A stretch of DNA of 64,000 nt from Elusimicrobiota bacterium. Its GTDB lineage: Bacteria; Elusimicrobiota; Elusimicrobia; Elusimicrobiales; UBA9959. Where the stretch lies: assembly GCA_016234365.1 (NCBI GenBank), contig JACRER010000079.1, forward strand, positions 15,154-79,153, in the 5' to 3' direction. A program made the translations under genes and the position numbers. This document shows, one piece after another, positions 10,627 through 60,991 of the stretch. The notes beneath the pieces were generated by a model. The model had not been told where the DNA came from and did not search any database. It worked only from the letters and a program-made list of their open reading frames with translations. The stretch's first letter is position 1, and each line of letters begins with the position of its first letter.

Positions 10627-10640
10627 GGGAGAAAGCCAAA

Positions 10641-38174: not shown

Positions 38175-39167
38175 TTAGCGGGAATTTTCCAGTTCTTTGA
38201 CCCAGGCTTCGGCCTCGGCCATGGCGGCGTCCGACGAGGGCGCCGCTTTTCTTTTGAGCCCGTAGAGGACCCGCAGCAGGGCCAGGGCCGGGCGCGGCAG
38301 GAAACTGGCGGAGAGCAGCTTAAGGAAAACCGGTCCGCGCGAAGCGGCGAGGAAAAGATACTCCCGGGCCTTTCCGGGCTGGAGGTTCTTCAGGTATACC
38401 TCGGCCTGCTTCAGGTAGACATAGTCTTTCAGTTCGCGTCCGGCAGCCTCGGGCGGCGCGGCCGTTTCCAGGGCGGCGCGGAAATCCGCTATGCCGTCGT
38501 CCCACTTCAGCGTAAGGCTCGAAGGATTTGCCGAAAGCCCGTGGATGCGGTATACCGACAGCGGTTGGGCTATGAAGTCCGCCTCCCAGTCCCGCAGTAT
38601 CTTCACATAAAGTTCCATGTCCTCCAGGTGGCTAAGGTCCTGGCGGAACGGCCCGGTTTTTGCCAGGACCTCGCGTTTAAAGGCCACGTTGGTGGTGACG
38701 TAGGGCAGCCACTTGTCGGAGATGGCCATGTAGGGCGGCAGCTTGCCGCGAGGAACGGCTCGGCGTTCGTCGAAAAATTTGGAGGTGAGGCGTCCCTCGC
38801 GCAGGATGTAGCCGTTGGAGAAAATAAATCCCGCGGCCGGGTTGCGCCCGATCAGGTCCGCGAATTTTTCCAGCCGGCGCGGCAGCCACAGGTCGTCCGC
38901 GTCCAGGAACGTGATATAGTCCCCGGCTGCGCGCTCCATGGCGTAGTTGCGGCAGCCGCCCTGACGGCGGTTCTCTTCGAACCTGATGAAATTCCAGCCC
39001 TGCTTTCCCGCGAACTCTTTGAACACCTCCGGGGTGGCGTCCTTCGAACCGTCGTCGATTATGAAGGCCTCGTAATCCGTGAAAGTCTGCGCGGCCAGGC
39101 TTTTAAGCGTGAGGCGCAGCAGGTCCGCGCGGTTGTAGGAAGGGATTATTGCGGTGAAGAGCGGCAT
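38175..39167 (-). CDS. family 2 glycosyltransferase with helical C-terminal extension
   Basis: Start trimmed to MPLFTAIIPSYNRADLL...DDGSKD...LDADD. 2 nt after the stop of the upstream gene. Confidence 0.85.
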   Translation of the reverse strand: MPLFTAIIPSYNRADLLRLTLKSLAAQTFTDYEAFIIDDGSKDATPEVFKEFAGKQGWNFIRFEENRRQGGCRNYAMERAAGDYITFLDADDLWLPRRLEKFADLIGRNPAAGFIFSNGYILREGRLTSKFFDERRAVPRGKLPPYMAISDKWLPYVTTNVAFKREVLAKTGPFRQDLSHLEDMELYVKILRDWEADFIAQPLSVYRIHGLSANPSSLTLKWDDGIADFRAALETAAPPEAAGRELKDYVYLKQAEVYLKNLQPGKAREYLFLAASRGPVFLKLLSASFLPRPALALLRVLYGLKRKAAPSSDAAMAEAEAWVKELENSR

Positions 39168-39169
39168 TG

Positions 39170-40372
39170 TCAGCGGCTCCCGAGCCTGCCGCCCAGCAGG
39201 GCCAGCGCGCGCAGCGCCCCGCCGGCGAAGCCGCGCAGGAAAGCGGCGGGGCCGTAGCCGAACAGGCGCCCCGCCATGCCGGCGGCGCCGGAGAAATTGC
39301 CGCGCCGCAGCAGGGAGAACATGGTGAAGGCCAGGCAATTGACGGCCTTGGCTTTGAACGCGCCGCTAAGGAAGACCGGCAGGTCCGCCGGGTTGGCCAG
39401 GTCCTTGTCCGCCAGGGCGGCGGCCAGGGCTTGCGCGGTAGTTTTGGCGTAGGCCTCCGGAGTGTACTCCCTCATGGCCCTGGCGTGGGCGGCGGCCGCC
39501 ATGGCTTCCCGCTTGTCCGGGTTGGCCAGGTAGTAGCGCACCTTCTCCAGCAGTTCTTCCTTGCCGGAGAAGACGTCTATTTCGCGGCCCACTTCGAACA
39601 TCTCCCCGATGGCCGGGGAGCGCTCGGTAAGGCAGAAAGAACCCGCGATAGCTATTTCCCTTGGCCTGCCGGTGTTCTGGCGCACGCGGTTGAGGATGGG
39701 TTCGTCGCCGTTTATCCAGTCCGGATCGGCCAGCTGCGAAAAATTAAGTACTACCTTGCTGCGCGACTGGACGTCGTAGATCTTGTCGGGGGCGAGGTAG
39801 CCGTTGGCTGAACCGGCGCCGTAGACCACCGGCTTCAGGCCGTTGGCTTCGAGATGGCCGATATAGCCGCGGCGGCCTTTCTTGCGCATGTCGCCTACGA
39901 AGCAGACGTCTATGTCGCGGGCCTTGGCCGGAGGAGTTATTGCGTTAGGGACCACTATCTCCTGGCAGAGCACCGCCGGGATGCCCAGCCGCCGGTAGGC
40001 GTGAACGGCCAGGTGGTCCGCGGTTATCACCGCGTCGCCGGCCTGGGCGTAGTATTTGCAGTAGGAATCGAAATAGGTGGAATCGTCGGCGAACCAGAAG
40101 ACCACTTTTACGGAACTGCGCAGCGCCGCGAAGAATTCAGGCGATAACTGGAAGTCGGTGGAGAAGGGGCAGCAGATCAGGATGTCCGGGCGGTCGAGCC
40201 GCACCGCCCGGGTTATGGCCTCTTCGGCCGCGGCGGCGCCGAGGCCGTAGACCAGGTCGGCGTAATTTACCAGTTTCACCTCGCCGAAATGGGGCAGGAA
40301 CGGGTCGAAACGCCGCACGAACCCGTTGAGGTCCGTGGGGTAGAGGATGAGGATGTTCTTGCCTTGCGTCAT
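39170..40372 (-). CDS. CgeB-family glycosyltransferase-like protein (DUF3880 + Glyco_trans_1_2-like)
   Basis: VCFVGDMRKKGRRGYIGHL..., NRVRQNTGRPREIAIAGSFCLTE, ELLEKVRYYLANPDKREAMAAAAHARAMREYT match the CgeB-like pattern from memory. Confidence 0.6.
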   Translation of the reverse strand: MTQGKNILILYPTDLNGFVRRFDPFLPHFGEVKLVNYADLVYGLGAAAAEEAITRAVRLDRPDILICCPFSTDFQLSPEFFAALRSSVKVVFWFADDSTYFDSYCKYYAQAGDAVITADHLAVHAYRRLGIPAVLCQEIVVPNAITPPAKARDIDVCFVGDMRKKGRRGYIGHLEANGLKPVVYGAGSANGYLAPDKIYDVQSRSKVVLNFSQLADPDWINGDEPILNRVRQNTGRPREIAIAGSFCLTERSPAIGEMFEVGREIDVFSGKEELLEKVRYYLANPDKREAMAAAAHARAMREYTPEAYAKTTAQALAAALADKDLANPADLPVFLSGAFKAKAVNCLAFTMFSLLRRGNFSGAAGMAGRLFGYGPAAFLRGFAGGALRALALLGGRLGSR

Positions 40373-40378
40373 CGGGCC

Positions 40379-41701
40379 TCAGAGCAGCGGCCGCTTGCGT
40401 TTGTCGTAGTCGTCGTAAGCTTTCTGCTGGTACTTCATCAGATCTTCGTCCGAAACCTCGGACAGGTTGGCCGCCACGCGCTGGTAATAGGTGTAATCGC
40501 AGTAGTCGTCGGGGTCGTGGCCGGTCAGCAGGCCGCGCTCCACGGCCATCTCGTGCAGGCGGGTGCCAGGGTACGGGGTGGAGATCATGAACTTGGCCAC
40601 TTCGGAGTCCAGCTCGTTGGCGAAGTCCAGCGTGGCTTTGATGGACTCATGGGTGTCGCCGGGCAGCCCTACGATATAGCTGGTCACGCACGGCAGGCCG
40701 GCGTCCTTAAGGATGCGCACGGCCTTGCGGATCTGGTCCTTGGTCTCGCCCTTGCGGATCAGTTTGAGGATCTTCTCGTCCCCTGATTCCACGCCGATGG
40801 CCACCGCGAAACAGCCGGCGCGCTTGAGCGTGGCGGCCAGCTCCGCGTCCAGCGTGTCGGCGCGCGACTGGACGTAGAAACGGATCTTGAGGCCCTTCTT
40901 AATGAGCGTCTCGCAGATCTCGGTGGCGCGGCGCTTGTCTATGGTGAAAGTGTCGTCGTAGAACATGAACTCGCTGATGCCGAACTTGTTGACGAGCAGT
41001 TCTATCTCGGCGATGATATCCGCCGGCGGGCGCAGGCGCGTCTTGCGGCCCCAGATCACCTTCGAGGCGCAGAAGATGCAGTCGAACGGGCAGCCGCGGC
41101 CCAGGATCAGCCCGGCGTGCGCGCCCTTGAAGGTGGAGGGGTCGCGGTAGGCGTCCAGCTCCAGCAGGTCCCAGGCGGGCAGGGGCAGGGCGCCAAGGTC
41201 CTTCAGGAGCGGGCGCAGCGGGTTCACCACGGTGCGGCCGCCGGCCCGGTAGATCAGGTTCAGGATGGCGTCGGGGGATTTGCCGGCCTGCAGGGCGTTG
41301 AGCAGCTCCAGGAACGGCTCCTCGCCCTCTCCCGCCACCGCGTAGTCCACGCAGGCCTCGTCCAGGGCGCGCTTCGGGTCGCCGCTCACGTGCGGACCGC
41401 CGAAGACCACCGTGGTCCGCGGCGAGGCTTTCTTGCATTCGGCCGCTATTTTCAGCGCCGCCGGGTAGCGCGGCGTCAGGCAGGTAAAGCCCACCAGGTC
41501 GGGCTTGCTGTCCAGTATTTTCGCGGCCAGCTCCGCGGGGGTGCCGCCGTGTATGTCGAAATCTATGATGCTGACTTCGTGGCCGTGCGGGCGCACGTAG
41601 GCGGCCAGTATCGCCAGGTTGGTGGGGGTGCGGAAAACCTTCTGCTGCTCCCATTTGCCGGAGCGCTGGAAATTGGGCGGTTCGACCAGTACTATTTTCA
41701 T
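40379..41701 (-). CDS. B12-binding-domain (class B) radical SAM enzyme
   Basis: N-terminal cobalamin-binding-like Rossmann (KIVLVEPP...LAILAAYVRPHGHEV...DLVGFTC). CxxxCxxC as GCPFDCIFC. Confidence 0.85.
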   Translation of the reverse strand: MKIVLVEPPNFQRSGKWEQQKVFRTPTNLAILAAYVRPHGHEVSIIDFDIHGGTPAELAAKILDSKPDLVGFTCLTPRYPAALKIAAECKKASPRTTVVFGGPHVSGDPKRALDEACVDYAVAGEGEEPFLELLNALQAGKSPDAILNLIYRAGGRTVVNPLRPLLKDLGALPLPAWDLLELDAYRDPSTFKGAHAGLILGRGCPFDCIFCASKVIWGRKTRLRPPADIIAEIELLVNKFGISEFMFYDDTFTIDKRRATEICETLIKKGLKIRFYVQSRADTLDAELAATLKRAGCFAVAIGVESGDEKILKLIRKGETKDQIRKAVRILKDAGLPCVTSYIVGLPGDTHESIKATLDFANELDSEVAKFMISTPYPGTRLHEMAVERGLLTGHDPDDYCDYTYYQRVAANLSEVSDEDLMKYQQKAYDDYDKRKRPLL

Positions 41702-41722
41702 CTTAGCGGTGTCTCCCGGGCC

Positions 41723-42781
41723 TCAGAACGGGCCCTTGAATTCCTTGTAGAGGCGTTTTTTGTACTCGGCGGACGGCAGTTCCACGCCGTGGTCCTTCCT
41801 GCCTTTCGCCAGGCGGCAGATCGCGTCGGCGACGGTGCCCATGTCGGGGTAGAAGTGGTTCTCCAGCGTCTTGGCCGTGGGACAGGGCGAATGCGCCTGC
41901 GCTATTTCAATTATGGGGGCCTTCAGCAGGCCGGGGTCGGACGTGGCTACCAGGCGCGAAACTTCCGCGCAGACGCCGAACGGCGCCCAGCCCGCGTCGG
42001 CCACCACCAGGCGGCCGGTCTTGCGCAGGCTGGCGAGCAGCATTTTGGAATCCAGCCGCGTCAGGCAGTGCAGGTCTATGACTTCCGCCTCTATGCCGGC
42101 GCGTTCGCTGAGGAACTTGGCGGCGTTAACGGCGTCGGCCACCATCACGGAGGTGGCAGCCACGGTCACGTCTCGGCCTTCCCTGACCAGGCGCGAGGTG
42201 AAAGGGTCGGGCTGGGGCTTAAGGCCGTCCATGTTGAAGGAATAGTCGTAAAGCGAACGGTGCTCGAACGAGACCACGGGGAAGCGCGCCTTGGTGGCGG
42301 CGTACTCGTAGGTATCCAGCACGCTCTGCGCCGAGGCGGGCATCACCACGGTGAGGCCCGGCACGTGCGACAGCAGGGCCTGCAGGCTCTGGGAATGCTG
42401 GGCGCCCTGGCCCCAGCTGCGGCCTATCACGGCCCGGATCAGGAGCGGCAGTTCGAACAGCCCGCCGTACATGTATTTGTACTTGGCGATGGAGTTCACC
42501 AGCTGGTTCATGGCCAGCAGCATGAAATCCGCGCGGATATGGATATGGACGGGGTAGATGCCGTTGAGGGCCGCGCCCACGGCGAAACCGGTCATGGCGT
42601 CCTCGGAGAGCGGCGTGTCGAACACGCGGCCCGGCCCGAAATCCTTCTCGAGACCCAGCGTGGTGCCGAAGATGCCGGTGAAATCCGTGACGCCCAGGCC
42701 GTAGACCACCGCCGACGGGTTCTTCTCCAGCGCGCCGCGCATGGCCTGCGCCAGCGCCTCCCTGTAGGTCATGGTCTTCAT
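41723..42781 (-). CDS. ThDP-dependent dehydrogenase E1 beta-like subunit (transketolase Pyr and C-terminal domains)
   Basis: MTYREALAQAMRGALEKNPSAVVYGLGV...FDTPLSEDAMTGFAVGAAL...GAQHSQS. ATG at 42781 shares one nt with the alpha-subunit stop (TGATG). Confidence 0.85.
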   Translation of the reverse strand: MKTMTYREALAQAMRGALEKNPSAVVYGLGVTDFTGIFGTTLGLEKDFGPGRVFDTPLSEDAMTGFAVGAALNGIYPVHIHIRADFMLLAMNQLVNSIAKYKYMYGGLFELPLLIRAVIGRSWGQGAQHSQSLQALLSHVPGLTVVMPASAQSVLDTYEYAATKARFPVVSFEHRSLYDYSFNMDGLKPQPDPFTSRLVREGRDVTVAATSVMVADAVNAAKFLSERAGIEAEVIDLHCLTRLDSKMLLASLRKTGRLVVADAGWAPFGVCAEVSRLVATSDPGLLKAPIIEIAQAHSPCPTAKTLENHFYPDMGTVADAICRLAKGRKDHGVELPSAEYKKRLYKEFKGPF

Positions 42782-43704
42782 CAGCACACGTCCTTGAGCA
42801 CTTCGTCGCAGGAGGGGAAGGGCGAGCGCTCGGCAAAGTCCACGGCGGCCGCTATTTCCCTGTCCAGCTCCGACTTGAATTTAGCTATCAGCGTTTTGTC
42901 GGTGGCCAGCGGGTCGCGGGCCCGCCAGGCCTCGTACTCGGCCCTGTCGCGGTAGCCTTTGTCGAAATCCTGCGCCACTCCGACGTGCTGCATGTAGCGG
43001 TAGGCGCGGATCTCGTAGACCTCGGGGCCGCCGCCGGCGCGCACGCGGGCGGCTATGCGGCCCGCGGCCCCGGCCACGGCGGGCATGTCCAGCCCGTCTT
43101 TGGAAAGAGTGTAGGGTATGCCGTACGCCCCGGCTAGCTTTTCCAGCGAGAAAGCCTGCCGCGTCGCCAGGTGGGAGTGGATGGCGAGGCCGTTGTTCTC
43201 TATCACGAACAGGAGCGGCAGTTTTTTGAGCGCCGCGAAGTTGAGGCATTCGTGGAATACGCCTTCCTCGGTGGAGTCGTCGCCCGTCAGCGACACCACT
43301 ATCTCGCTGCGGCCGCGCAGCTGGAAGGCGTAGGCGGCGCCGAGCGCGTGGGAGAGCGTGGCCGCTACGATGGCCGAGGAGCCCATCAGGCCCGTCTCCG
43401 GCCAGCAAAGATGCATGGAGCCGGCCTTGCCCTTGGAGACTCCGGCCGCCTTGCCGTAAAGTTCGGCGAACATGCGCGGCATGTCGCCGCCCTTGGCCAG
43501 GTAGGCGGCGTGGCTGCGGTAAGTGGTGTAGAGCTGGTCGGTATCCGCCAGCGCGGCTATGAGCGCCGCCGTGTGCGGCTCCTGGCCTATGGACAGGTGC
43601 ACGGGGCTCTGGATCTTGTCGCTGGGGTAGATCTCGGCGATCTTTTCCTCGGCCAGGCGGATGCGCAGCGCCTGGCGGAACATTTCCTCGTAGGAGGTTT
43701 TCAT
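42781..43704 (-). CDS. ThDP-dependent dehydrogenase E1 alpha-like subunit
   Basis: Start trimmed to MKTSYEEMFRQALRIRLAEEKI. SPVHLSIGQE, YRSHAAYLAKGG, ThDP motif GDDSTEEGVFHECLNFAALKKLPLLFVIENN. ATGA overlap with the upstream gene. Confidence 0.85.
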   Translation of the reverse strand: MKTSYEEMFRQALRIRLAEEKIAEIYPSDKIQSPVHLSIGQEPHTAALIAALADTDQLYTTYRSHAAYLAKGGDMPRMFAELYGKAAGVSKGKAGSMHLCWPETGLMGSSAIVAATLSHALGAAYAFQLRGRSEIVVSLTGDDSTEEGVFHECLNFAALKKLPLLFVIENNGLAIHSHLATRQAFSLEKLAGAYGIPYTLSKDGLDMPAVAGAAGRIAARVRAGGGPEVYEIRAYRYMQHVGVAQDFDKGYRDRAEYEAWRARDPLATDKTLIAKFKSELDREIAAAVDFAERSPFPSCDEVLKDVC

Positions 43705-44693
43705 CTGCCGGCCTCCCGGGCGACTTCCGCCCGGCAGTGCTCCAGCAGGAAGGCCACGCTGTCCTTGAAGGAGTAGCGCGGCTTCCAGCCGGTCTGCCGC
43801 GCGAACTTGCGCACGTCCGGGATCTGGAGGGTCACGTCGGTGGGCCTGAAAAGTTTCGGGTCGGGCTTGGAGGGGACGGGGCACTTGGCCAGTTTCTTGA
43901 GCAGCGCCAGGAACTCGCCCACTTTTATGACGGTAGTGCCGCCGATGTTGTAGGCCTGGCCGAACTCACAGCGGTTCATGGCCGCCCAGTAGGACGCCAT
44001 GGCGTCGCGCACGTCTATGAGCGTGCGCGTGGAGTCCAGGTTGCCGTGCAGCAGCGTCTTCTGCAGGCCGGCCTCGATGCGGGCCACCTGCATGGCGAAC
44101 GACGTGGCGAACAGGTCCGCGCGGCGCGGGTTGAGGTAGGCGAACATGCGGGTGCGGATAACCTTCATGCCGTAGTTGGCGAAGTAGGTGTAGCCCAGCA
44201 GGTCCTGCGCCGCCTTGGAGACGGCGTACGGGCTGGCCGGGCGGAAGCGGCATTCCTCGGAGATCGGCACGTCCTTCTTTTCCACCTGGCCGTAGACCTC
44301 GGAGGTGCTGCACAGCTGTATTACCGGGTTGGCGCCGGAAGCGCGGACCGCTTCGAACAGGTTGGCCGTGCCCATGACGTTGTTGTTGAGCACCGCCAGC
44401 GGCGTGGCGAAGGAGGCGCGCACGTTGGCGTGGGAGGCGATATGGAAGATGCCGTCGGGGCGCACCGCGCGCACCGTGTCCAGCACGGACTTGAAATCCA
44501 GCAGGTCGCATTCGTGCAGGGTCACGCGGCCGCGGCACAGGGCGAGGTTCTTGCCCGAGGAAGTGCTGTGCCAGCGCGAGATGCCGTGGACGGCCGTGCC
44601 GGGGTGGTTGTCCGCTATATAGTCCGCCAGGTAGCTGCCGCCGGAGCCGGTGATGCCGGTGATTATGACCCGCTTGAATTTCCTGTTCTTCAT
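43701..44693 (-). CDS. NDP-sugar 4,6-dehydratase of the GDP-mannose dehydratase (Gmd) type
   Basis: ITGITGSGGSYLADYI, HIASHANVRASF, STSEVYG, PASPYAVSKAA, NLDSTRTLIDVRD parallel Gmd motifs. Confidence 0.75.
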   Translation of the reverse strand: MKNRKFKRVIITGITGSGGSYLADYIADNHPGTAVHGISRWHSTSSGKNLALCRGRVTLHECDLLDFKSVLDTVRAVRPDGIFHIASHANVRASFATPLAVLNNNVMGTANLFEAVRASGANPVIQLCSTSEVYGQVEKKDVPISEECRFRPASPYAVSKAAQDLLGYTYFANYGMKVIRTRMFAYLNPRRADLFATSFAMQVARIEAGLQKTLLHGNLDSTRTLIDVRDAMASYWAAMNRCEFGQAYNIGGTTVIKVGEFLALLKKLAKCPVPSKPDPKLFRPTDVTLQIPDVRKFARQTGWKPRYSFKDSVAFLLEHCRAEVAREAGR

Positions 44694-45631
44694 CAGACGT
44701 TCCCGTACCTGGAATTGCGCAGGATCGCGTAGCCTTTTATGAGCTCGTCGATGCCGTCGTCCAGGGAGTAGCCGGGGCGGAAGCCCGTCTTCTCTATCTT
44801 TTCGTTGGAAACTATGTAGTCGCGCTTGTCCACGTCCTCGCCTACCGGGGACTCCAGGTAGACGAACTTGGGCAGGTGCTCCTTGATCTTGGCGCAGAGC
44901 TGCAGTTTGGAGAGATTGGCCTGGCTCAGGCCCACGTTATAAGCCCCGCCGCGCATCTTGCCGAACTTGTTGAGCACGTGGGAGAAGGCCTTGGCCACGT
45001 CCATGATGTGTATGTAGTTGCGGCGGAAGTGGCCTTCGAAGATGATGACGAAGCGGTCGGTGACGGCCCGGTAGACGAAGTCGTTCACCAGCAGGTCCAG
45101 GCGCATGCGCGGCGACATGCCGAACACCGTGGCCAGGCGCAAGCTGACCGAATTTTCGCGGGCCAGTACGGCTTTCTCCGCGTCCACTTTTACGCGGCCG
45201 TAGAGGGAAATGGGGTTCAGGGGTGTCTTTTCGGTGCAGTACTTGTCTTTGGCGCCTATGCCGTAGCCGCTGTTGGTGGTGGGGTAAACTATGCGCTGCT
45301 CCCTGGCGGCGTTCCTGGCTATCCAGCGCACCGCCTCGAAGTTGACGGTTTTGGCGGCGGTGACGTCGTTGTCGCAGAGCGGGGCGCCTACCAGCGCCGC
45401 CAGCGGGATGACCACGTCCGCCTTTTTCAGCAGAGGTTTAACCTTGCGCGGGTCGCGCGCGTCGCCGCGCACCACGTTGAAGGCTTTGTTGCGGCAGCAG
45501 TCGGCCAGGGAATTCTGGCCGTACATGAAATTATCCAGCACGGTGACCCGGTGGCCCAGCGAAAGCAGCTGCGGTACCAGCACCGACCCAAGGTAACCGG
45601 CCCCGCCGGTTACGAGTATGTCCTGTCCCAT
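44693..45631 (-). CDS. NAD(P)-dependent sugar epimerase/reductase (extended SDR)
   Basis: VTGGAGYLGS Rossmann motif; YGRVK (YxxxK). 1-nt overlap with the downstream gene. Confidence 0.8.
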   Translation of the reverse strand: MGQDILVTGGAGYLGSVLVPQLLSLGHRVTVLDNFMYGQNSLADCCRNKAFNVVRGDARDPRKVKPLLKKADVVIPLAALVGAPLCDNDVTAAKTVNFEAVRWIARNAAREQRIVYPTTNSGYGIGAKDKYCTEKTPLNPISLYGRVKVDAEKAVLARENSVSLRLATVFGMSPRMRLDLLVNDFVYRAVTDRFVIIFEGHFRRNYIHIMDVAKAFSHVLNKFGKMRGGAYNVGLSQANLSKLQLCAKIKEHLPKFVYLESPVGEDVDKRDYIVSNEKIEKTGFRPGYSLDDGIDELIKGYAILRNSRYGNV

Positions 45632-45661
45632 TTTTATCTCCGTCGCGGCCCTCGCGGGCCG

Positions 45662-46864
45662 CTATATCTTTCCAGTTAAGAACCGTTTCGTCAGTTCTAT
45701 GAAATAGTCTATGTGTTCCTCGTTGATGTCCTGGTGCAGGCCGATGTGCAGGCCGTTGTCGGCGCAGTATTCCGCCTCGGGGAATTCGCCGAGCTTGTGC
45801 CCCAGGAAAGAGAAGCCCGGGCACTGCGTAGGCATGGAGAGGAACAGGCTGCGGGTGTCCACGCCGTTGTCTTCAAGGTACGTCATGAGCTGGTCCCGGG
45901 TGAACTTGGCGCCGGGGGGCACCAGCACGGGGAAAGCGTAGGGCGCCATCTCCTCGCCGGCCACTGGGTCTATGGTCAGCAGGTGCGGTTTGAGGGCGGC
46001 GAACTGCTTGTGGATATACTTGAAATTGCGCAGGCGCGCCGCGAAGATCTTGGGGTAGATGTCCAGGTAGCCCAGGCCGATGGCGGCCTCCAGTTCGTTC
46101 ATCTTGGCGGAGAAGCCCACGCGCTCGAAGATGAAGCGGATGTCGGTGCCGCGCTTGAAGCGCTTGTCGCAATGGCCGCCGCTGACGCTCATCATGCAGG
46201 TTTCGCATTTGCAGGCGCGGCCGTGCGCGCGCAGCGAGCGCAGGGTGTTGGCGTATTCCGGGTTGTTGGTGGCCACTATGCCGCCCTCGCCGGTGGAGAT
46301 GACGTGCGCGATGTAGAGGCTGAAGGCCGCCATGTCGCCCAGCGTGCCTATCTCCTTGCCGCGGTAGGTGCCGCTCTGCGCTTCGGCCGCGTCCTCCACC
46401 ACCAGCAGTTTGTGCTTCTTGGCGACGCGGTTAACGGCCTCCATGTCGGCCGGTTTGCCCATCAGGTGCACGGGCATGATGGCCCTGGTGCGCGGGCCGA
46501 CGGCGGCCTCTATCTTTTTAGGATCGATGTTGAGGGTGGTCCGTTCTATGTCCACGAATTTGGGGATAAAGCCGGCCTGCAGCACGGCGTTGCCGGTGGC
46601 CACGAACGAGAGCGACGGGACGATGACCTCGTCGCCGCGTTTGGCGCCGAGGTCGTAGAGCACGGCCAGCGCCAGCGCGTCGGCGTCGGTGCCCGAGGAC
46701 ATGGCCACGGCTTCCTTGGTGCCGACCAGCTTGGCGAAGCCGCGCTCGAATTCGCGCACCAGTTTGCCGCCGGAGATGCGGCCGGAGTCCAGCGCGCCGT
46801 TCACCAGCTGTTTGGTCTTGTCGGTTATCGTTATCGTGCCGAAGGGGTAGCGGAGTTTTTTCAT
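45662..46864 (-). CDS. DegT/DnrJ/EryC1-family PLP/PMP enzyme with His replacing the Schiff-base Lys (E1/ColD-type sugar 3-dehydratase candidate)
   Basis: AFSLYIAHVISTGEGG has His at the position 5 residues before GEGG where aminotransferases have Lys. Cys cluster CKCETCMMSVSGGHC starts 31 residues after that His. Confidence 0.65.
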   Translation of the reverse strand: MKKLRYPFGTITITDKTKQLVNGALDSGRISGGKLVREFERGFAKLVGTKEAVAMSSGTDADALALAVLYDLGAKRGDEVIVPSLSFVATGNAVLQAGFIPKFVDIERTTLNIDPKKIEAAVGPRTRAIMPVHLMGKPADMEAVNRVAKKHKLLVVEDAAEAQSGTYRGKEIGTLGDMAAFSLYIAHVISTGEGGIVATNNPEYANTLRSLRAHGRACKCETCMMSVSGGHCDKRFKRGTDIRFIFERVGFSAKMNELEAAIGLGYLDIYPKIFAARLRNFKYIHKQFAALKPHLLTIDPVAGEEMAPYAFPVLVPPGAKFTRDQLMTYLEDNGVDTRSLFLSMPTQCPGFSFLGHKLGEFPEAEYCADNGLHIGLHQDINEEHIDYFIELTKRFLTGKI

Positions 46865-47559
46865 ACCAGATGCCCTGCTTTCCTGAGTACGGCTTCCGCC
46901 GTTGCGTATCTTTCCGGGGTGCCAATATCGAGCAGCGGCGCCGCGGTCCTGAACCCGTAAAGCCTGCCGAGCCGGGGGAACAGGTCGTATTCGAAAGAGT
47001 ATTTTTTGCCGGCGGGTATTTCCGCAAGCAGCGACCTGTCCAGCAGGTAGACTCCCGCGTTCACCAGGCCGCCGGCCTTGCGCCCCGTCTTTTCAAGGAA
47101 GGCGGTTATCCGGCCTCCGGCCGCCAGCCGCACCGTGCCCACGTCGCCGCGGCCCGAGGGTTTGGCCAGCGCCACCGAGGCCAAGGCCCGCTTGCGCCGG
47201 TGGAAGGCCGCGAAACGTTTCAGGTCCACCGCGCAGAAAGAATCCCCGTTGAGTACCAGGAAGCTGGTCCCCTTTATGAGCCGCCGCGCGTTCTTTACCG
47301 CGCCGGCCGTGCCCAGGGGTTTGGCTTCCACGGAGACGGCTACGTCGGCCGCCGCGGCGTAATGCCGCTTTATGACCCCGGCCCTGTAGCCGGCGCACAG
47401 CACGAACCTGCGCACTCCGCGCCGGCGCAGGCCCGCCAGCAGCAGGTCCAGAAAAGGCTTGCCGGCCACCTCGGCCATAGGCTTGGGGCGGCCTTTAACC
47501 GCCGCCCGCAGGCGCCGTCCGAGGCCGCCGCAGAGGATGACCGCTTCCGGGCCGGTCAT
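46861..47559 (-). CDS. sugar-1-phosphate nucleotidyltransferase (HddC/ManC-like)
   Basis: AVILCGGLGRRLR...KPMAEVAGKPFLD, PLGTAGA, NGDSF. ATGA-type overlaps on both sides. Confidence 0.8.
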   Translation of the reverse strand: MTGPEAVILCGGLGRRLRAAVKGRPKPMAEVAGKPFLDLLLAGLRRRGVRRFVLCAGYRAGVIKRHYAAAADVAVSVEAKPLGTAGAVKNARRLIKGTSFLVLNGDSFCAVDLKRFAAFHRRKRALASVALAKPSGRGDVGTVRLAAGGRITAFLEKTGRKAGGLVNAGVYLLDRSLLAEIPAGKKYSFEYDLFPRLGRLYGFRTAAPLLDIGTPERYATAEAVLRKAGHLV

Positions 47560-48557
47560 TTCCAGTCGGTCCCGTGCGAATAATAAATTATCTGGCTGCC
47601 GAAGTACTCGAACTTAAAGGGAATGAACAGCAGGTCCTTCAGCGCTTCCTTTATCTTCGCCTGCTTTTCCGGCTCGGCGTAAAAGAGCATGAACCCGCCG
47701 CCGCCGGCGCCCAGCAACTTGCCGCCTTCGGCGCCGCAGCGCAGCGCGGTCTCGTGGATCTGGTCGATGTGGGAGTTGCTGATCTTGCCCGACAGGGAGC
47801 GCTTCATCTTCCAGGTCTCGTTGAGCAGGCGTCCGAAAGCCGGCAGGTCCGGCTTGTGCGCGGTGACGAGCCCGCAGGCCTCGTCCACCAGGGCGGCCAT
47901 GCGCTCGAGCTCGCGCCCGTTGCGCCCGACGTTGGCTATCTGTTCGTGCGCTATGTCGGAAGCGTTGCGCGACAGGCCGGTAAAGACCAGCATCAGCCGG
48001 TTCTCCAGGGCCGCCACGTTCTCCGTGGTCATGATCACCGGGGAAACCACTATCTCCCGGTTGGGAAGGAATTCGATGCGGTTAAAGCCGCCGTGCGCCG
48101 CGAACACCTGGTCCTGCGAGCCCACGTTCTCGGCTATATCGTTCTGCTCTATGTCGATGGCGAGCTCGCCGAGGTCGCCCTTGGAGATGGCCTTGCCGTC
48201 CATGGCGTGCATGGCGTTGAGCAGCCCCACCGTGAAGGCGGAGCTGGAGCCCATGCCGGAGCGGGCCGGGATGTCCCCGTCGTGGTGTATGGAAATGCCT
48301 TTGGCGTACTTGAGGCGTTTGAGCACGGCCTTGACCGCCGGGTGGGCGATCTCGTCTATCTCCTTTACGTTCTCCATGCGGGAATAGACGATGCGGTGCT
48401 TGTGTTCGAAGAAGGGGGGGAGTTCGCGGACTATGAGGTAGCAGTATTTGTCTATGGCGGCGCCCAGCACCTTGCCGCCGTGCTTGAGATACCAGGACGG
48501 GTAGTCGGTCCCGCCGCCGAAAAATGAGATCCTGTGCGGAGTCTTGGTTATGATCAT
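47556..48557 (-). CDS. GHMP-family sugar kinase (HddA / fucokinase-like)
   Basis: ATG at 48557 gives MIITKTPHRISFFGGGTDY. GHMP motif PARSGMGSSSAF. Confidence 0.8.
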   Translation of the reverse strand: MIITKTPHRISFFGGGTDYPSWYLKHGGKVLGAAIDKYCYLIVRELPPFFEHKHRIVYSRMENVKEIDEIAHPAVKAVLKRLKYAKGISIHHDGDIPARSGMGSSSAFTVGLLNAMHAMDGKAISKGDLGELAIDIEQNDIAENVGSQDQVFAAHGGFNRIEFLPNREIVVSPVIMTTENVAALENRLMLVFTGLSRNASDIAHEQIANVGRNGRELERMAALVDEACGLVTAHKPDLPAFGRLLNETWKMKRSLSGKISNSHIDQIHETALRCGAEGGKLLGAGGGGFMLFYAEPEKQAKIKEALKDLLFIPFKFEYFGSQIIYYSHGTDWK

Positions 48558-48582
48558 AGGCCCGGCCGCGCCGGAAACCAAT

Positions 48583-48610
48583 ATTATATTAATAATTAAA
48601 GGCCGTTCAA
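48583..48610 (-). promoter_or_regulatory. sigma70-type promoter internal to the glycan locus
   Basis: Reverse strand reads TTGAAC-16 nt-TATAAT, about 25 nt upstream of the kinase ATG. It overlaps a weak GGCCG/CGGCC hairpin plus T-rich run just after the methyltransferase stop. Confidence 0.5.
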
Positions 48611-48623
48611 ACGGCGGCCGGGG

Positions 48624-49604
48624 TCAGCCGCGGCGGGCGGCTATGGCGAACAGCTGGGTGCCGCGCCCGGGCCGCGTCAGCCTGTAGTAGAGCATCATCC
48701 AGAAGAAGACCGGGAAGGTGAACACGTGCAGGACGTCGTAAAAAGCCTTTACCAGCCGCTGGCGCGTCCTGGCCGAGCGCAGGAAGCCGGGCGTGCCGGC
48801 GCCGGCGGCGGCCGCCGCGGTGAAGGTGACCGAGTCGGGGGTGCCTTTGGGCAGCAGCACGGCCCGCGCCGCCTTCATGGCCAGTTCCCGCAGCGCGCTG
48901 ATGAAGCGCCGCGAAAATTCCCAGACCGGCAGGTAGGAAGAATCCAGCCGAACTATCTCCAGCCCGTGGCTGGCCAGGAAGGCCGTAAGCGCGCCGCGCG
49001 TCCAGCGGGTCAGGTGGTGGGGCGGCATGTCGAAATAATCGCGCCCGAACGGCAGCGGCCGGTCGGTATTGGGCGTGGTCAGGGCCAGCTGCCCGCCGTC
49101 TTTGAGCAGCGAGGAGATCCGGTCCAGTTCGGCGTTGGGATCGTCGAGGTGTTCGATGCAGTCGAAATAGGTGATGAGGTCGAACTTCAGGCCGGGGAAT
49201 TTTTCGCGGAAGGCGTTAAGGTCGCCCATGAAGAGGTTGGCGAGGCCTTTTGCGCGCGCCGCCGCTATGGCCTCGGGGTTGATGTCTATGCCGTAAGCCT
49301 CGAAACCGGCCGCCTGCGCCATCGCCAGGAAGACGCCGGTGCCGCAGCCTATGTCCAGCGCCAGCCGGCCGCGTCCGTCTTGGCCGCGCAGTACCTCTTT
49401 AAAATGGGGCTTGGGGGTTTCCTCGTAGCCGGCGGCGCTGGAGAACCTGGCGTACCAGCCGGCCCCCGGGTTTTTAAAGGGGTCCGCGAATTCCACGCCG
49501 CAGCCGGCGCAGCGCAACACGGCGTAGGAGGCCTTGTCCACCGGGTCCAGCCAGGTTTCCAGGCGCGTGTGCGCGGAGACGGAGCCGCAGACGGGGCAGT
49601 TCAC
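48624..49604 (-). CDS. class I SAM-dependent methyltransferase with N-terminal zinc ribbon and C-terminal hydrophobic tail
   Basis: CPVCG...CAGCG. Motif I LDIGCGTG. Motif post-II ITYFDCIEHL. Confidence 0.8.
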   Translation of the reverse strand: MNCPVCGSVSAHTRLETWLDPVDKASYAVLRCAGCGVEFADPFKNPGAGWYARFSSAAGYEETPKPHFKEVLRGQDGRGRLALDIGCGTGVFLAMAQAAGFEAYGIDINPEAIAAARAKGLANLFMGDLNAFREKFPGLKFDLITYFDCIEHLDDPNAELDRISSLLKDGGQLALTTPNTDRPLPFGRDYFDMPPHHLTRWTRGALTAFLASHGLEIVRLDSSYLPVWEFSRRFISALRELAMKAARAVLLPKGTPDSVTFTAAAAAGAGTPGFLRSARTRQRLVKAFYDVLHVFTFPVFFWMMLYYRLTRPGRGTQLFAIAARRG

Positions 49605-50575
49605 GCGGCGCTCCCGGAGCGCGGAGAGCGCAGCCTGGCGTAGAAGGAGTGCAGGCGCAGATAAAGGGAGGGGCTCAGGACGGAAAAGACCAGCGTCGCC
49701 GCGGTGAAAAAACGGCGCGGGGAGGAGCTGCGGAGGACCTCTTTTATGATGGTCCCCAGCGCGGCCCGGCGTTCGCCGCGGCGGGAATAGTAGAGGACGC
49801 GGGCTTTGGCAAGTTCCATGGGCAGCGGCACGTTCGTCTTCTTTATATCCACGCCGGCCGCCTTAAGCCTGGCGGCCAGTTCCTTAAGGATCACCGCCTT
49901 GACCTTGATGTAGTTGCCCAGGCGGCGCGTGTCCGCCATGGTGCCGGCGAACCAGTTGGCGCCGTGGATCTTCTTGAAGCCGAGCACCGAATTTATGGAC
50001 CGGACGCGGGAGTGGATAAGGATGCAAAGGTAAAGGTACTCGTCGGCGCAGTAGAAGAGGCCGGCGGGCACGGGCAGGACCCTGTCGAGGAAGGAACGGC
50101 GGAAAGCCAGCCCGCTGGTGCCGGTGAAACTCGCCCGGCCTTCCAGCAGGTCCTTGAGTTCGTAATGGTCCGGCCGCCGGTCGAACTGCTGGCTCAGCGG
50201 GTTGCCGGCCGGGTCCACGTCCATCATGAAATGCTGCACCATGCCGATATCCGCGGCTTCGGCGAAGGCCGCGGCCGCGGCCTTGAGCTTGTCCGGTTTC
50301 CACGCGTCGTCGGCGTCCAGCAGGCAGACGAACTCCCCGGAGGCTTCCCTGAGCCCGGTGTTGAAGGCCGAGGCCTGCCCCGAGTTCTCCTGGTAAAAAT
50401 ATTTTACGCCTCGGCCGTACCTGGCCAGGCGCAGCGCGGTGTCGTCGGTGGAACCGTCGTCCACCACTATCAGCTCAAATTCCCCGCGCGGGAAGTCCTG
50501 CGCGAGTACGCTGTCCACCGCTTCCTCTATGTAGCGGCCGTAGTTGTAGGTGCCTATGATGACCGAAAATTTCAC
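49601..50575 (-). CDS. family 2 glycosyltransferase
   Basis: KFSVIIGTYNYGRYIEEAVDSVLAQ...VVDDGSTD...LLDADD. Confidence 0.88.
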   Translation of the reverse strand: MKFSVIIGTYNYGRYIEEAVDSVLAQDFPRGEFELIVVDDGSTDDTALRLARYGRGVKYFYQENSGQASAFNTGLREASGEFVCLLDADDAWKPDKLKAAAAAFAEAADIGMVQHFMMDVDPAGNPLSQQFDRRPDHYELKDLLEGRASFTGTSGLAFRRSFLDRVLPVPAGLFYCADEYLYLCILIHSRVRSINSVLGFKKIHGANWFAGTMADTRRLGNYIKVKAVILKELAARLKAAGVDIKKTNVPLPMELAKARVLYYSRRGERRAALGTIIKEVLRSSSPRRFFTAATLVFSVLSPSLYLRLHSFYARLRSPRSGSAA

Positions 50576-52008
50576 GCCGCCCCTCCGTCCCGGCCGAAGC
50601 CGGCGGTGCGCGCCAGCAGGGCCAGGTCTTCTCTGGTAACGCCTTTCAGCAGCAGCAGCGCGGCGGCGTAGGCAGCGGCGCCCGCCCCGATAAGGAGAAA
50701 AACGTTGCGGCCGCCCAGGGCCGCCAGCAGCAGCGCCATCAGCGCCGAGGCCGCCAGCGGCTTCAGGGACTGCCTGAGCGGCACCGTGTAGACCGCGCGG
50801 GTCTGGAAATAATAGACGGCGTTGGTGACGCCGTAGGAGGCCACGAAGGAGGCCGCCAGCCCGACGGAGCCGTAAACCGGGATCAGCAGCAGGCCCAGGG
50901 CCACCGACAGCAGCGCCTGCGTGAAGCTGATCCAGAGGTTCTTGTTCTGCTTATGCGCGGCCAGCAGCGAGAAGGAAAAAATATTGTTCAGGAAGATCAG
51001 GTACGGCAGCACCGCCAGGACCTTCAGGAGCAGCCCGGCCTCCAGGAATTTGTCGCCGTAGATCAGGTGGATGATGGGGTCCGCCAGCATGAAGAGCCCC
51101 GTTATGGCGGGGTAGCTGACTATGGCCATCCATTTCAGCGTCACGTCCATTATTTTTTTGAAGGTTTCGGGGTTGTGCAGGTAATGCTTGGAGATGGCGG
51201 GGAACACCGCCGCGGCATAGGCGACCAGGGCCTCGACGAGGATCCAGATGATCTTGTAGGCGGCGGAGAAATAGCCCACTTCCTGCGTACCGCGCGTGAA
51301 GCCCAGGATGGTCACCCCGGAGTTGAGGACTATTATGGTCATCACGCCCCAGACGGCCACCGGCAGCGTCTGCCTGAAAACCTCTTTGGAGAATTCCGGG
51401 ACGAAGCGGAAAGCGTAGCCGGGATCGAGGCGGCGGTAGGCCAGGAACATGAAGAGGACGGCGGCGGCCTGCGCGGCCAGCAGCAGCAGCGGGATGCGCG
51501 GCAGGTCGGCGCTGCCGCCCACGAACAGCAGCACGGCGCCCAGGTAGACCAGCCCCTGCAGGACCGCGGCGGCGCCCAGGAATTCCATCCGCTCTATGCC
51601 CTGGAAGACCCAGTCGAAGGTAAGCACGTTGGCCGTGAACATGGTCAGGCCGTAAGCCGCGGTGAGCAGTTTCAGTTCCCGGCCCTGCGGCATGAAAAAG
51701 GCGAAAGCCGCCAGCAGCGTGAACGAGGCCAGGCCCAGCACCAGCTTCAGGCTGATGTTGGCGTTGATGTAGTCTCCCTGGCCGGCCTGCCGCTGGGCCA
51801 ATTCGCGGATGCCTACGGTGCCCAGGCCCAGGTGCGCCAGGATGGCGAAATAGCTGACCAGCGCCAGCGCGAAGTTCATGGCCCCGAAATCCTCCGGGCC
51901 CAGCACGCGCGCCAGGTACACCACCGTCATCAGGCCGAAGGCCTTTGAGACGGCGTTTGAGAAGGTGAGCGACAGGAAATTCCTGAAAATAGTGCTGCCG
52001 GCGTTCAT
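50572..52008 (-). CDS. MOP/Wzx-type polysaccharide flippase
   Basis: 478 aa, about 12-14 TMs. N-terminus FRNFLSLTFSNAVSKAFGLMTVVYLARVLGPEDFG is typical of the polysaccharide biosynthesis protein family. Confidence 0.85.
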   Translation of the reverse strand: MNAGSTIFRNFLSLTFSNAVSKAFGLMTVVYLARVLGPEDFGAMNFALALVSYFAILAHLGLGTVGIRELAQRQAGQGDYINANISLKLVLGLASFTLLAAFAFFMPQGRELKLLTAAYGLTMFTANVLTFDWVFQGIERMEFLGAAAVLQGLVYLGAVLLFVGGSADLPRIPLLLLAAQAAAVLFMFLAYRRLDPGYAFRFVPEFSKEVFRQTLPVAVWGVMTIIVLNSGVTILGFTRGTQEVGYFSAAYKIIWILVEALVAYAAAVFPAISKHYLHNPETFKKIMDVTLKWMAIVSYPAITGLFMLADPIIHLIYGDKFLEAGLLLKVLAVLPYLIFLNNIFSFSLLAAHKQNKNLWISFTQALLSVALGLLLIPVYGSVGLAASFVASYGVTNAVYYFQTRAVYTVPLRQSLKPLAASALMALLLAALGGRNVFLLIGAGAAAYAAALLLLKGVTREDLALLARTAGFGRDGGAA

Positions 52009-58328: not shown

Positions 58329-59315
58329 ATGAAAGATCTCAAATACGCCTTGTTTCTTGGCATTATGGTCTTTGCCGGGGCATACGTCTGGGCCATTCCT
58401 GCAGGCTTCAACATCCAGGGACGGCTTACGGACGCCAACGGGGTTAATAAGGATGGGACCTTACAGATAAAATTCTCGGTTTACCCAGGGGATATAGGAG
58501 GATCTCCAGTCTGGGAAAAGAACTTTACCTCTGTTGTGGTCAAGAACGGCAATTTCCAGGTTATACTCCAGGGGCAGGGAGATAATTCAGTGCAACTCGA
58601 AACGGCTGTAAAGGACCTGGAGGCCGCCTATGTGGAGATAAAAGTGGGCACAGAGGCTCCGCTGGTGCCGCGGCAGCCGCTATTGCGCTCTCCATTCGCC
58701 TCGTCGGATAAGATTGTTTCCAAAACAGACGTGCTGGTGCAAAGCGACAGCCAGAGTTCCGGCTCCGGACTCATAACTCTGCGCACTGGCAGCGCTGACC
58801 GCCTCACCATCCTTAATAACGGCAATGTCGGTGTAGGGAACAATGCCCCGGATAAAAAGCTTGTGGTCTCGGGCGATGCGGCCATAACGGGCAACCTCTC
58901 CGCCGGCAACTTGGTCGGTGCGGTTATGTTCTTTGCCGGGGCCGCATGCCCAGCGGGATGGCTTCAGCTTAACGGTGCCGCGCTGCAGGCGTCCGAATAC
59001 CCGGGGCTTTTCACCCAAATCGGGTATCTCTATGGCGGAAGCGGAGCCAGTTTTCTGCTTCCAAACATGACCGATGGCTCTTTTATCCGTGCCACCGGCG
59101 GAAACGCCGCGCCTGTCGGCGCAAAACAAGCGGATGCTATTATCTCTCATACGCACACCACGCCGTCACTGGGCTACTATCGGGATTATGGGCCAGGCAG
59201 ATATGGCCTGAATGATTATGCCCCGGGAAATGTCCCAACAAACAGCCAAAACCCGCCTGGCGCGGCGGAAACTCGACCCTTGAACTATTCCATGACGCCG
59301 TGCATAAAATTTTAG
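58329..59315 (+). CDS. secreted or anchored tail-fibre-like protein with C-terminal phage tail-collar domain
   Basis: N-terminal hydrophobic segment. Fibre-like FNIQGRLTDANG...VWEKNF...NGNFQVIL and NGNVGVGN. Collar domain VMFFAGAACPAGWLQLNGAAL...YPGLFTQIGYLYGGSGASFLLPNMTDGSFIR. Confidence 0.8.
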   Translation: MKDLKYALFLGIMVFAGAYVWAIPAGFNIQGRLTDANGVNKDGTLQIKFSVYPGDIGGSPVWEKNFTSVVVKNGNFQVILQGQGDNSVQLETAVKDLEAAYVEIKVGTEAPLVPRQPLLRSPFASSDKIVSKTDVLVQSDSQSSGSGLITLRTGSADRLTILNNGNVGVGNNAPDKKLVVSGDAAITGNLSAGNLVGAVMFFAGAACPAGWLQLNGAALQASEYPGLFTQIGYLYGGSGASFLLPNMTDGSFIRATGGNAAPVGAKQADAIISHTHTTPSLGYYRDYGPGRYGLNDYAPGNVPTNSQNPPGAAETRPLNYSMTPCIKF

Positions 59316-59356
59316 TGTTCAGCGGCAAGTGGCATATGAGACTGGGAGGTAAATTT

Positions 59357-59824: not shown

Positions 59825-59891
59825 CGATGCGCGGCCTAACCAATGGCGGTATTACACAATGCCGGGAGATGAAAAGGCGGAAAGGTTTGTT

Positions 59892-60878: not shown

Positions 60879-60916
60879 CTAGCGCAGTGTGGTGTGGATT
60901 TCCGTGTGGGATCTCG

Positions 60917-60991
60917 ATGGCGGTAGACGGGGACGAAAAAAATCTGAAGCAGGTGTGCCCGTGGAAGACGGGATTTATGGTAAGTGTATGA
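60917..60991 (+). pseudogene. relic of the 3' end of a PD40-like gene, ending in an ATGA overlap with the M23 gene start
   Basis: 60926-60964 is 30/39 identical to 59786-59824. In frame, DGDEKNLKQVCP compares with DGDGKNLKQVYP*. Confidence 0.35.

Follow-up and report, generated by a model that had tools for sequence, protein, structure and literature searches.

The sugar 3-dehydratases E1, SpnQ and ColD are a textbook case of one pyridoxal/pyridoxamine 5′-phosphate (PLP/PMP) scaffold that supports two routes to deoxygenation at C-3, one reductive and dependent on an iron-sulfur (Fe-S) cluster, the other transaminative, with regeneration of PMP. Which route is followed by a 400-amino-acid protein of the same DegT fold that is encoded on the minus strand of a 64,000-nucleotide stretch (hereafter the window) from an Elusimicrobiota bacterium? 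This protein has a histidine where sugar aminotransferases carry their Schiff-base lysine and four cysteines in a loop shortly downstream, and an earlier note on this DNA saw in it a hybrid of the ColD and E1 solutions. Our analysis favours, with modest confidence, a C-3 dehydratase that depends on PMP, follows the E1/SpnQ type of mechanism, has a probable Fe-S loop and acts in a guanosine diphosphate (GDP)-heptose pathway. Its clade combines an E1-type loop of different ligand arrangement with a pathway in which only ColD-type enzymes are known, and no paper describing an Fe-S-type GDP-sugar 3-dehydratase was found in the literature searched.

A His-type DegT protein with a four-cysteine loop

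The gene and the residues on which the argument turns lie at these positions:

45662..46864, minus strand: His-type DegT enzyme, a predicted PMP-dependent nucleoside diphosphate (NDP)-4-keto-sugar 3-dehydratase (PF01041; RfbH below cutoff; E1 and ColD alignments; AlphaFold2 model)
46304..46306, minus strand: codon of His187, at the Schiff-base lysine position, equivalent to E1 His220 and ColD His188; invariant in 121/121 sequences
46136..46219, minus strand: putative Fe-S binding loop R216-R243 (GR-A-C-K-C-E-T-C-x8-C-D-K-R-F), by alignment to the E1 loop and four invariant Cys
45821..45823, minus strand: codon of Cys348 (PTQCPGF), the fifth Cys invariant in the close family
46454..46456, minus strand: codon of Lys137, within HLMGKPADM, invariant in the close family

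The gene model holds, since homologues align from residue 1-3 onward and the ATG start overlaps by four bases the stop codon of the upstream gene (46861..47559). Profile and fold both place the protein in the DegT/DnrJ/EryC1/StrS superfamily of fold type I: PF01041 (DegT_DnrJ_EryC1) covers its full length (E=4.5e-95, profile positions 4-357 of 360), and an AlphaFold2 (AF2) model built on 70 sequences has an overall predicted local distance difference test score (pLDDT) of 89.5 and template modelling (TM) scores of 0.80-0.87 to GDP-perosamine synthase, E1, ArnB and ColD. The pLDDT drops below 50 only in residues 215-231 and 246-250, which make up the Cys loop; values this low would be expected of a cofactor-dependent loop, yet they are no evidence of metal binding. 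The closest curated family is RfbH/E1, and an exact-sequence lookup of the protein returned no match.

Three characterised enzymes served as references in the alignments. E1 (AscC/DdhC/RfbH) of Yersinia pseudotuberculosis (3BCX), the cytidine diphosphate (CDP)-6-deoxy-L-threo-D-glycero-4-hexulose 3-dehydrase, matches over its full length with 190 bits, 28-29% identity and a TMq of 0.86, the N-terminus of our protein being about 37 residues shorter. ColD (WbdK) of E. coli O55 (2GMS), the GDP-4-keto-6-deoxy-D-mannose 3-dehydratase, matches with 177 bits and approximately 30% identity. The best overall match in both HMMER and Foldseek, at 211 bits, 34% identity and a TMq of 0.84-0.85, is the GDP-perosamine synthase Per of Caulobacter crescentus (3BN1/3DR4), a true aminotransferase that, unlike our protein, retains its Schiff-base lysine, K186. 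This similarity to Per is consistent with a GDP-sugar ligand.

Residues 181-195 read FSLYIAHVISTGEGG, with His187 five residues ahead of G192 of the GEGG motif, just as the earlier note had observed. HMMER aligns His187 both to His220 of E1 (3bcx) and to the lysine of Per, the registers being 'slyiAHvistGEGG' in the query, 'sfypAHhitmGEGG' in E1 and 'sffgnKiittGEGG' in Per. MAFFT, applied to the query, E1, ColD, Per and diverse relatives, aligns it to the histidine of ColD (His188, in SHHIATMEGG; the ColD sequence used is identical to residues 3-390 of PDB 2gms). The protein thus shares the His-for-Lys replacement of the E1/ColD/SpnQ group. Another lysine, the invariant K254, was considered for the Schiff-base role and rejected, as it corresponds to the conserved Arg/Lys of a G-x-N-x-R/K motif in E1, ColD and Per. 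K137 is specific to the close family, its place being taken by Asn in E1 and ColD and by Gln in Per.

The cysteines that the note had placed at +31, +33, +36 and +45 from the histidine are Cys218, Cys220, Cys223 and Cys232, all inside CKCETCMMSVSGGHC; two more occur in the protein, at 348 and 367. The E1 numbering given there (His220, Cys251, Cys253, Cys261) holds for PDB chain 3bcx, of which residues 36-432 were rebuilt from HMMER output and which has H220, C192, C193, C251 (+31), C253 (+33), C257 and C261. The first two loop cysteines therefore share their spacing from the histidine in both proteins, within a 'GR-x-C-x-C' motif that HMMER and MAFFT find common to the query and the GRDCYCAPGCDNTCKKRF loop of E1. 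In the MAFFT alignment Cys232, in 'C-D-K-R-F', falls in register with C261 of E1, in 'C-K-K-R-F', after a five-residue insertion that E1 lacks.

The remaining ligands are arranged differently, again in agreement with the note. The 'EDCCD' of E1, which holds C193, is 'EDAAE' in the query, where Ala160 is the equivalent of C193, and a third loop cysteine, Cys223 (CxCx2C, as against CxCx3C in E1), lies near the position of C257. Measured against the E1 motif C193...C251-x-C253-x7-C261, the query thus has C218, C220 and C232 as equivalents, Ala160 in place of C193, and Cys223 as an extra cysteine. The ColD loop (HGWTRNLPKKNK...) has a different sequence and is Cys-free, and the loop of about 25 residues is entirely missing in Per. 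On these alignments, the Cys loop is homologous to the cluster loop of E1, whose ligands were reportedly assigned by Agnihotri et al. in 2004 as C193, C251, C253 and C261. Both E1 and SpnQ bind a [2Fe-2S] cluster through a four-Cys motif that is absent from ColD (PMC8987622).

Conservation was assessed in a close family of the 120 best database hits (61-91% identity), which makes 121 sequences with the query. His187, Cys218, Cys220, Cys223, Cys232 and Cys348 are invariant in all of them and Cys367 is not; the Cys/His pattern is not due to chance, because it is preserved while most other loop positions vary. The named sources of these hits are metagenome-assembled genomes (MAGs) of Elusimicrobia, Endomicrobia, Nitrospirae and Omnitrophica, in which the proteins are annotated merely as 'DegT family aminotransferase'. 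At the position of Cys348, E1 and most other clades have Q or H, and orthologues that lack the loop (see below) keep the cysteine in some cases and have Thr in others.

When 1.84 billion cluster representatives were searched exhaustively with HMMER, 5,245 hits reached E<=1e-30. Among the best 150, most carry His and not Lys, and several loop types are represented:

Query-like: HGR-x-C-x-C-x2-C-x5-10-C
E1-like: WGRDC-x-C-x7-C, together with a C193-equivalent Cys
ColD-like: HGW-x-R..., no Cys
Acidic, in His-type DegT relatives: 'HGRDSIYLSIDDDD', no Cys
Short loops, among the best 150 DegT relatives

A rough neighbour-joining (NJ) tree sets Lys-type proteins apart from His-type proteins, and joins ColD-like with E1-like sequences, ColD included, the query clade lying away from them. 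Loops of the CxCx2C...C type are found on either side of this tree, in many clusters formed at 50% identity. The query falls in a distinct clade of His-type DegT proteins that branches deeply and has many members, and its scores put it at about the same distance from E1, ColD and Per. The idea of a hybrid stands loosely, in that an E1-like cofactor loop is combined with a GDP-sugar substrate, but not as a chimera: no domain-wise mosaic is apparent, the N-terminal 190 residues are closest to GDP-perosamine synthase (172.7 bits, HMMER), and the tree separates the clade from both ColD and E1.

Candidate fourth ligands are distributed in a complementary manner across these clades. Among His-type representatives with a CxC loop, the third loop cysteine is present in 15/15 that have no C193-equivalent, the C193-equivalent is present in 8/8 that have no third loop cysteine, and none is without both (Fisher p=0.003, kinship among the sequences being ignored). 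The pattern is suggestive of a site with four ligands of which the fourth can be exchanged, although half of it is little informative, since a C193-equivalent cysteine is also common in His types without the loop (76/86).

The acidic, Cys-free 'HGRDSIYLSIDDDD...' loop characterises a large His-type DegT group (P0133, P0143-P0146, P0151, P0155, P0156, P0168, P0172 and others), and many of these proteins are fused into proteins of 600-800 amino acids. We know of no characterised member of this group.

A probable GDP-heptose operon and its relatives

The DegT gene belongs to a 13-gene operon on the minus strand, running from 52008 to 38175. The other twelve genes, in order of transcription, are:

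50572-52008, minus strand: flippase (operon head)
49601-50575, minus strand: glycosyltransferase of family 2 (GT2; operon head)
48624-49604, minus strand: S-adenosylmethionine (SAM) methyltransferase (operon head)
47556..48581, minus strand: HddA-like GHMP heptose kinase (NCBIfam HddA 163 bits; PDB 3k85, 4n3o, 4usk ~145-152 bits)
46861..47559, minus strand: HddC-like sugar-1-phosphate guanylyltransferase (NCBIfam ManC-type 160 bits, HddC 133 bits; 6jq8/5xhw 126 bits)
44693..45631, minus strand: Cj1427-like short-chain dehydrogenase/reductase (SDR), predicted GDP-D-glycero-D-manno-heptose C4-dehydrogenase (6vo6/6vo8 over the full length, 376.5 bits)
43701..44693, minus strand: Gmd/DmhA-like NDP-sugar 4,6-dehydratase (PF16363 217.8 bits; 7us5 175 bits; TSE and YxxxK motifs)
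42781..43704, minus strand: pyruvate dehydrogenase (PDH)-E1-alpha-like subunit of a thiamine pyrophosphate (TPP) enzyme (PF00676 159 bits)
41723..42787, minus strand: PDH-E1-beta-like TPP subunit (Transket_pyr and Transketolase_C)
40379..41701, minus strand: B12-binding radical SAM enzyme, candidate C-methyltransferase (PF02310 and PF04055)
39170-40372, minus strand: glycosyltransferase-like protein (Glyco_trans_1_2; operon end)
38175-39338, minus strand: GT2 glycosyltransferase (operon end)

The program-made open reading frame (ORF) for the PDH-E1-alpha-like subunit starts with GTG at 43884 and overlaps the Gmd-like gene by 184 nucleotides. Its true start is likely the ATG at 43704, which is preceded by GGGAGG (Shine-Dalgarno) and overlaps the upstream stop codon by four bases.

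The neighbours of the DegT gene point to heptose. The solved structures closest to the kinase are heptose kinases (3k85, 4n3o and WcbL, ~150 bits), and those closest to the transferase are of the '6-deoxy-D-mannoheptose pathway protein' HddC (6jq8/5xhw), followed by mannose-1-phosphate guanylyltransferases. The Gmd-like SDR finds its best PDB match in 7us5, a GDP-D-glycero-D-manno-heptose 4,6-dehydratase, ahead of Rmd (2pk3, 163 bits). The second SDR is 50-55% identical to 6VO6, the title of which names Cj1427; a single-sequence AF2 model of this SDR has a pLDDT of 38, which makes its structural scores meaningless. C-4 of GDP-D-glycero-α-D-manno-heptose is the site of oxidation by Cj1427, for which α-ketoglutarate serves as co-substrate (PMC10680097).

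Both 4-keto-forming enzymes, Cj1427-like and DmhA-like, are encoded directly downstream of the DegT gene, a context in keeping with the 3-dehydratase group. The CDP-glucose partners of E1 (glucose-1-phosphate cytidylyltransferase, CDP-glucose 4,6-dehydratase and the reductase E3) are missing, their place being taken by HddA-, HddC-, Cj1427- and DmhA-like genes. Judged by these neighbours, the pathway is most likely that of GDP-heptose, and neither that of CDP-glucose (E1) nor that of GDP-mannose (ColD). The protein is therefore not E1, given its score below the RfbH cutoff and the missing CDP-pathway context; nor is it ColD-type, given its four-Cys loop. The earlier note had singled out the Gmd-like gene as a GDP-type companion; the GDP pathway is borne out, but the conserved partners are the Cj1427-like SDR and the HddA/HddC-like genes, which speak for a heptose.

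Much of this arrangement recurs elsewhere. The closest genome relative, Elusimicrobia bacterium GWA2_62_23 (L006), has the whole operon in synteny, with 91% identity, and in approximately 30 further loci the kinase (~380-400 bits), the transferase (~200 bits) and the Cj1427-like SDR travel with the His-type DegT gene. No other neighbour is as well conserved in the family as the SDR (~420 bits in 20+ loci), and the core of kinase, transferase, Cj1427-like SDR and His-type DegT is kept in >25 loci of several phyla (window 38175-52008 on the minus strand, L001, L003, L005, L007-L023, L026 and L028-L034). Carriers include Elusimicrobia, Ca. Brocadia, Nitrospirae, Omnitrophota, Dehalococcoidia, a bacterium of the candidate phyla radiation (Wildermuthbacteria) and Woesearchaeota. 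Cassette loci usually also encode a TPP enzyme, which is either PDH-E1αβ-like or a split transketolase at the place of the window's E1αβ-like pair, together with between one and three B12-radical-SAM enzymes.

Because the Gmd-like gene is conserved only in L006 among the family loci, the evolutionarily stable supplier of substrate is the C4-dehydrogenase. By this comparison the ancestral substrate is probably GDP-D-glycero-4-keto-heptose, and in the operon of the window a 6-deoxy form may join or replace it. In vitro, Cj1427 and a ColD-type dehydratase of C. jejuni together make GDP-3-deoxy-4-keto-heptose, and the resulting 3-deoxy-heptoses were termed novel (PMC10680097). The conserved cassette suggests that such 3-deoxy-heptoses are produced in nature.

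The TPP enzyme offers a use for such a product. In known pathways 3,6-dideoxy-4-keto sugars are the acceptors for TPP-dependent addition of an acetyl branch at C-4, carried out by YerE (yersiniose) or by the two-subunit AviB1/AviB2 (avilamycin) (PMC4753412), and E1 itself feeds a TPP branching enzyme in yersiniose-type clusters (PMC4753412). A 3-dehydratase is likewise paired with a TPP branching enzyme at an E1-type locus among those we compared, L046. By analogy, the E1αβ-like pair in the window is a candidate for installing a C2 branch, which fits the yersiniose logic. The operon would then make a surface-glycan 3-deoxy or 3,6-dideoxy 4-C-branched heptose, possibly C- or O-methylated.

Locus L046 (8016-15144, from a Thiobacillus MAG) has a canonical E1-type gene with the loop GRDCYCAPGCDNTC and EDCCD, and a YerE-like three-domain TPP enzyme is encoded directly downstream of it. 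The locus also encodes a nucleoside triphosphate (NTP) transferase, a 4,6-dehydratase, a class I/II aminotransferase beside E1, and an SDR.

Proposed mechanism and its alternatives

In the mechanism that we favour, which is modelled on E1 and SpnQ, a GDP-linked heptose would react through its 4-keto group with PMP to give a Schiff base, the heptose being supplied by the adjacent Cj1427-like C4-dehydrogenase or, as the 6-deoxy form, by the DmhA-like 4,6-dehydratase. His187 would abstract the C4′ proton and the 3-OH would be expelled, after which two one-electron transfers through an Fe-S cluster, most likely [2Fe-2S], would reduce the sugar-enamine-PMP adduct. The cluster would be held by Cys218, Cys220, Cys223 and Cys232 of a single loop. 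Electrons would come from a housekeeping ferredoxin or flavodoxin system, which is proposed because no dedicated E3 is encoded nearby. The predicted 3-deoxy-4-keto-heptose would serve as the electrophile for the adjacent TPP enzyme, from which C-4 would acquire a two-carbon branch. The B12-radical-SAM enzyme and the SAM methyltransferase would then methylate the sugar and, finally, the glycosyltransferases and the flippase would transfer and export it.

Several observations weigh against this mechanism. The best NCBIfam match, RfbH (NF011936), scores 269.6 bits, under the equivalog cutoff of 423; the GDP-heptose assignment is drawn from neighbour homology of 125-376 bits; and GmhA and GmhB are not encoded in the window. 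Zn or a [4Fe-4S] cluster would be equally plausible occupants of a short loop with four cysteines. Pfam annotation of the large ORFs of the window reveals no gene for a ferredoxin, a flavodoxin or an E3-like protein, and none was seen within ±10 kb of 20 loop-bearing homologues, where the motif search gave only spurious matches. The GDP-heptose 3-dehydratases known from C. jejuni belong to the ColD type and require no more than PLP and glutamate (PMC10440746). Finally, there are orthologues without the loop that, on contigs long enough to tell, lie in the same cassette, so that the loop is not indispensable for the pathway.

The missing E3 had also struck the earlier note, and its absence from the locus is upheld: besides the Pfam annotation, a ferredoxin-motif scan of the window gave no credible match, the hits being spurious antisense matches in GC-rich sequence; its plant-type pattern was not validated on a true E3, the E1-type locus L046 having none. 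However, this absence is not distinctive. The canonical E1-type locus L046 likewise has no E3-type reductase within ~5 kb, and B12-radical-SAM enzymes, which are also encoded in these operons, need a general low-potential reductant. SpnQ of Saccharopolyspora spinosa, the thymidine diphosphate (TDP)-4-keto-2,6-dideoxyglucose 3-dehydratase, has PMP and [2Fe-2S] and no dedicated E3, and uses general ferredoxin/flavodoxin reductase pairs (PMC8987622). The likeness between SpnQ and our protein is drawn from the description in that review, and the two differ in context, SpnQ belonging to a TDP-2,6-dideoxyhexose pathway of actinomycete secondary metabolism. Given the examples of SpnQ and L046, a missing E3 is no argument against an Fe-S mechanism.

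The alternative that survives best, although we consider it unlikely, is ColD-type chemistry: C-3 dehydration and enamine hydrolysis, with PMP regenerated from glutamate and a Cys loop that is structural (a Zn site, or a disulfide or redox sensor). ColD resembles our protein in its histidine and in its GDP-linked substrate, and differs from it in that it has no Fe-S cluster and regenerates PMP with glutamate (PMC8987622). The GDP-heptose C3-dehydratases of C. jejuni HS:5/HS:11 are 62-67% identical to ColD and act on GDP-6-deoxy-4-keto-heptose, and in vitro also on the product of Cj1427 (PMC10440746, PMC10680097). The α-ketoglutarate released by such a dehydratase could feed the Cj1427-like dehydrogenase as oxidant, Cj1427 being known to require it (PMC10680097), and even SpnQ transaminates with glutamate if no reductase is supplied (PMC8987622). 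The lack of a reductase gene nearby points the same way.

The orthologues without the loop bear most directly on this alternative. They are found at L020-L023, L025-L030 and L034 (MAGs of Omnitrophota and Planctomycetales; most of the matches lie near 10001-11119), share 51-58% identity with the query, and keep the catalytic histidine; a clean deletion of ~32 residues removes the whole Cys loop. In the proteins that do have the loop, all four cysteines persist. The pathway without the loop presumably runs by ColD-type chemistry, which would also supply α-ketoglutarate to the Cj1427-like enzyme. In an NJ bootstrap from which the loop columns were excluded, the loop-less Omnitrophota clade has 95% support and the main loop-bearing family 84%. 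The larger clade in which these two join the loop-bearing L024 and a second loop-less group has 97%, the branching order inside it being supported by 30-34% only. All outgroups carry the four-Cys loop and the loop-less Omnitrophota clade is nested among loop-bearing sequences, so that loss of the loop is the parsimonious interpretation.

For the loop-bearing enzymes, several results argue against ColD-type chemistry and for the reductive mechanism. Their loop is homologous to one that reportedly binds [2Fe-2S] in E1 (PMC8987622), its four cysteines persist through 121 sequences in an otherwise variable loop, and candidate fourth ligands are complementary across clades, whereas the loop of ColD and its relatives is a different one and Cys-free.

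A variant of the reductive mechanism, in which the four loop cysteines hold a [4Fe-4S] cluster in place of the [2Fe-2S] of E1, strikes us as distinctly improbable. It would suit the grouping of all four ligands in one CxCx2Cx8C loop, unlike E1 with its remote C193, as well as the fifth invariant cysteine, Cys348, and hosts that seem to come mostly from anaerobic lineages without cultivated members (Elusimicrobia, anammox bacteria and Omnitrophota, on general knowledge of their lifestyle). However, a loop homologous to that of E1 is by default expected to hold [2Fe-2S], no sequence rule tells the two cluster types apart, and the loop matches neither the classical CX2CX2CX3C ferredoxin motif nor the CX3CX2C radical-SAM motif.

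That the protein is no 3-dehydratase, and instead transaminates, epimerises or 4-deoxygenates GDP-4-keto-heptose or acts on another substrate, is very improbable: the low RfbH score, the very large and mostly uncharacterised radiation of His-type DegT proteins with its many loop types, and the plasticity of a scaffold whose E1 variant H220K performs non-catalytic transamination (PMC8987622) would leave room for it, but every characterised His-for-Lys member in the same review (E1, ColD, SpnQ) is a 3-dehydratase (PMC8987622), the C. jejuni enzymes are as well (PMC10440746), and the gene is flanked by a 4-keto-forming enzyme and has a C-4-directed TPP enzyme downstream, as the yersiniose logic would have it.

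The family is thus large, widespread and uncharacterised, and probably represents a variant of the E1/SpnQ-type enzyme that acts on GDP-4-keto-heptose. A bolder proposal, tentative and rather doubtful as a whole, is that it constitutes a third route to sugar C-3 deoxygenation, specific for GDP-heptose, with an Fe-S cluster ligated by one CxCx2Cx8C loop and general reductants as electron donors. The loop-less orthologues would then record a recent switch from reductive (E1-like) to transaminative (ColD-like) chemistry, and the cassette (HddA, HddC, Cj1427-like, 3-dehydratase, TPP enzyme, B12-radical SAM) would make an undescribed 3-deoxy, 4-C-branched, C-methylated heptose in Elusimicrobia, anammox bacteria, Nitrospirae, Omnitrophota and others.

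Natural loop-deletion orthologues in the same gene context provide a comparative system for the role of the cluster and the interconversion of the two mechanisms. Although the family is common and its chemistry expected, it is a good lead for enzymology, with a natural control already at hand. From the cassette one would predict that widespread uncultivated bacteria, anammox bacteria included, display an undescribed branched deoxy-heptose on their surfaces, and its enzymes could be useful additions for the chemo-enzymatic synthesis of GDP-heptose derivatives.

Otherwise the window consists of a housekeeping region of ribosomal-protein, SecY, RpoA and cell-wall genes, with regulators. A trypsin-family serine protease (PF00089, 213 bits; 386-1237, plus strand) adjoins the ribosomal protein operon. 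Two response regulators and a hybrid histidine kinase precede a stretch of the plus strand (58329-63105) that encodes a phage tail collar domain protein (58329-59315), an ORF without a family match (59859-60878) and a 738-amino-acid protein with an M23 peptidase domain (60889-63105).

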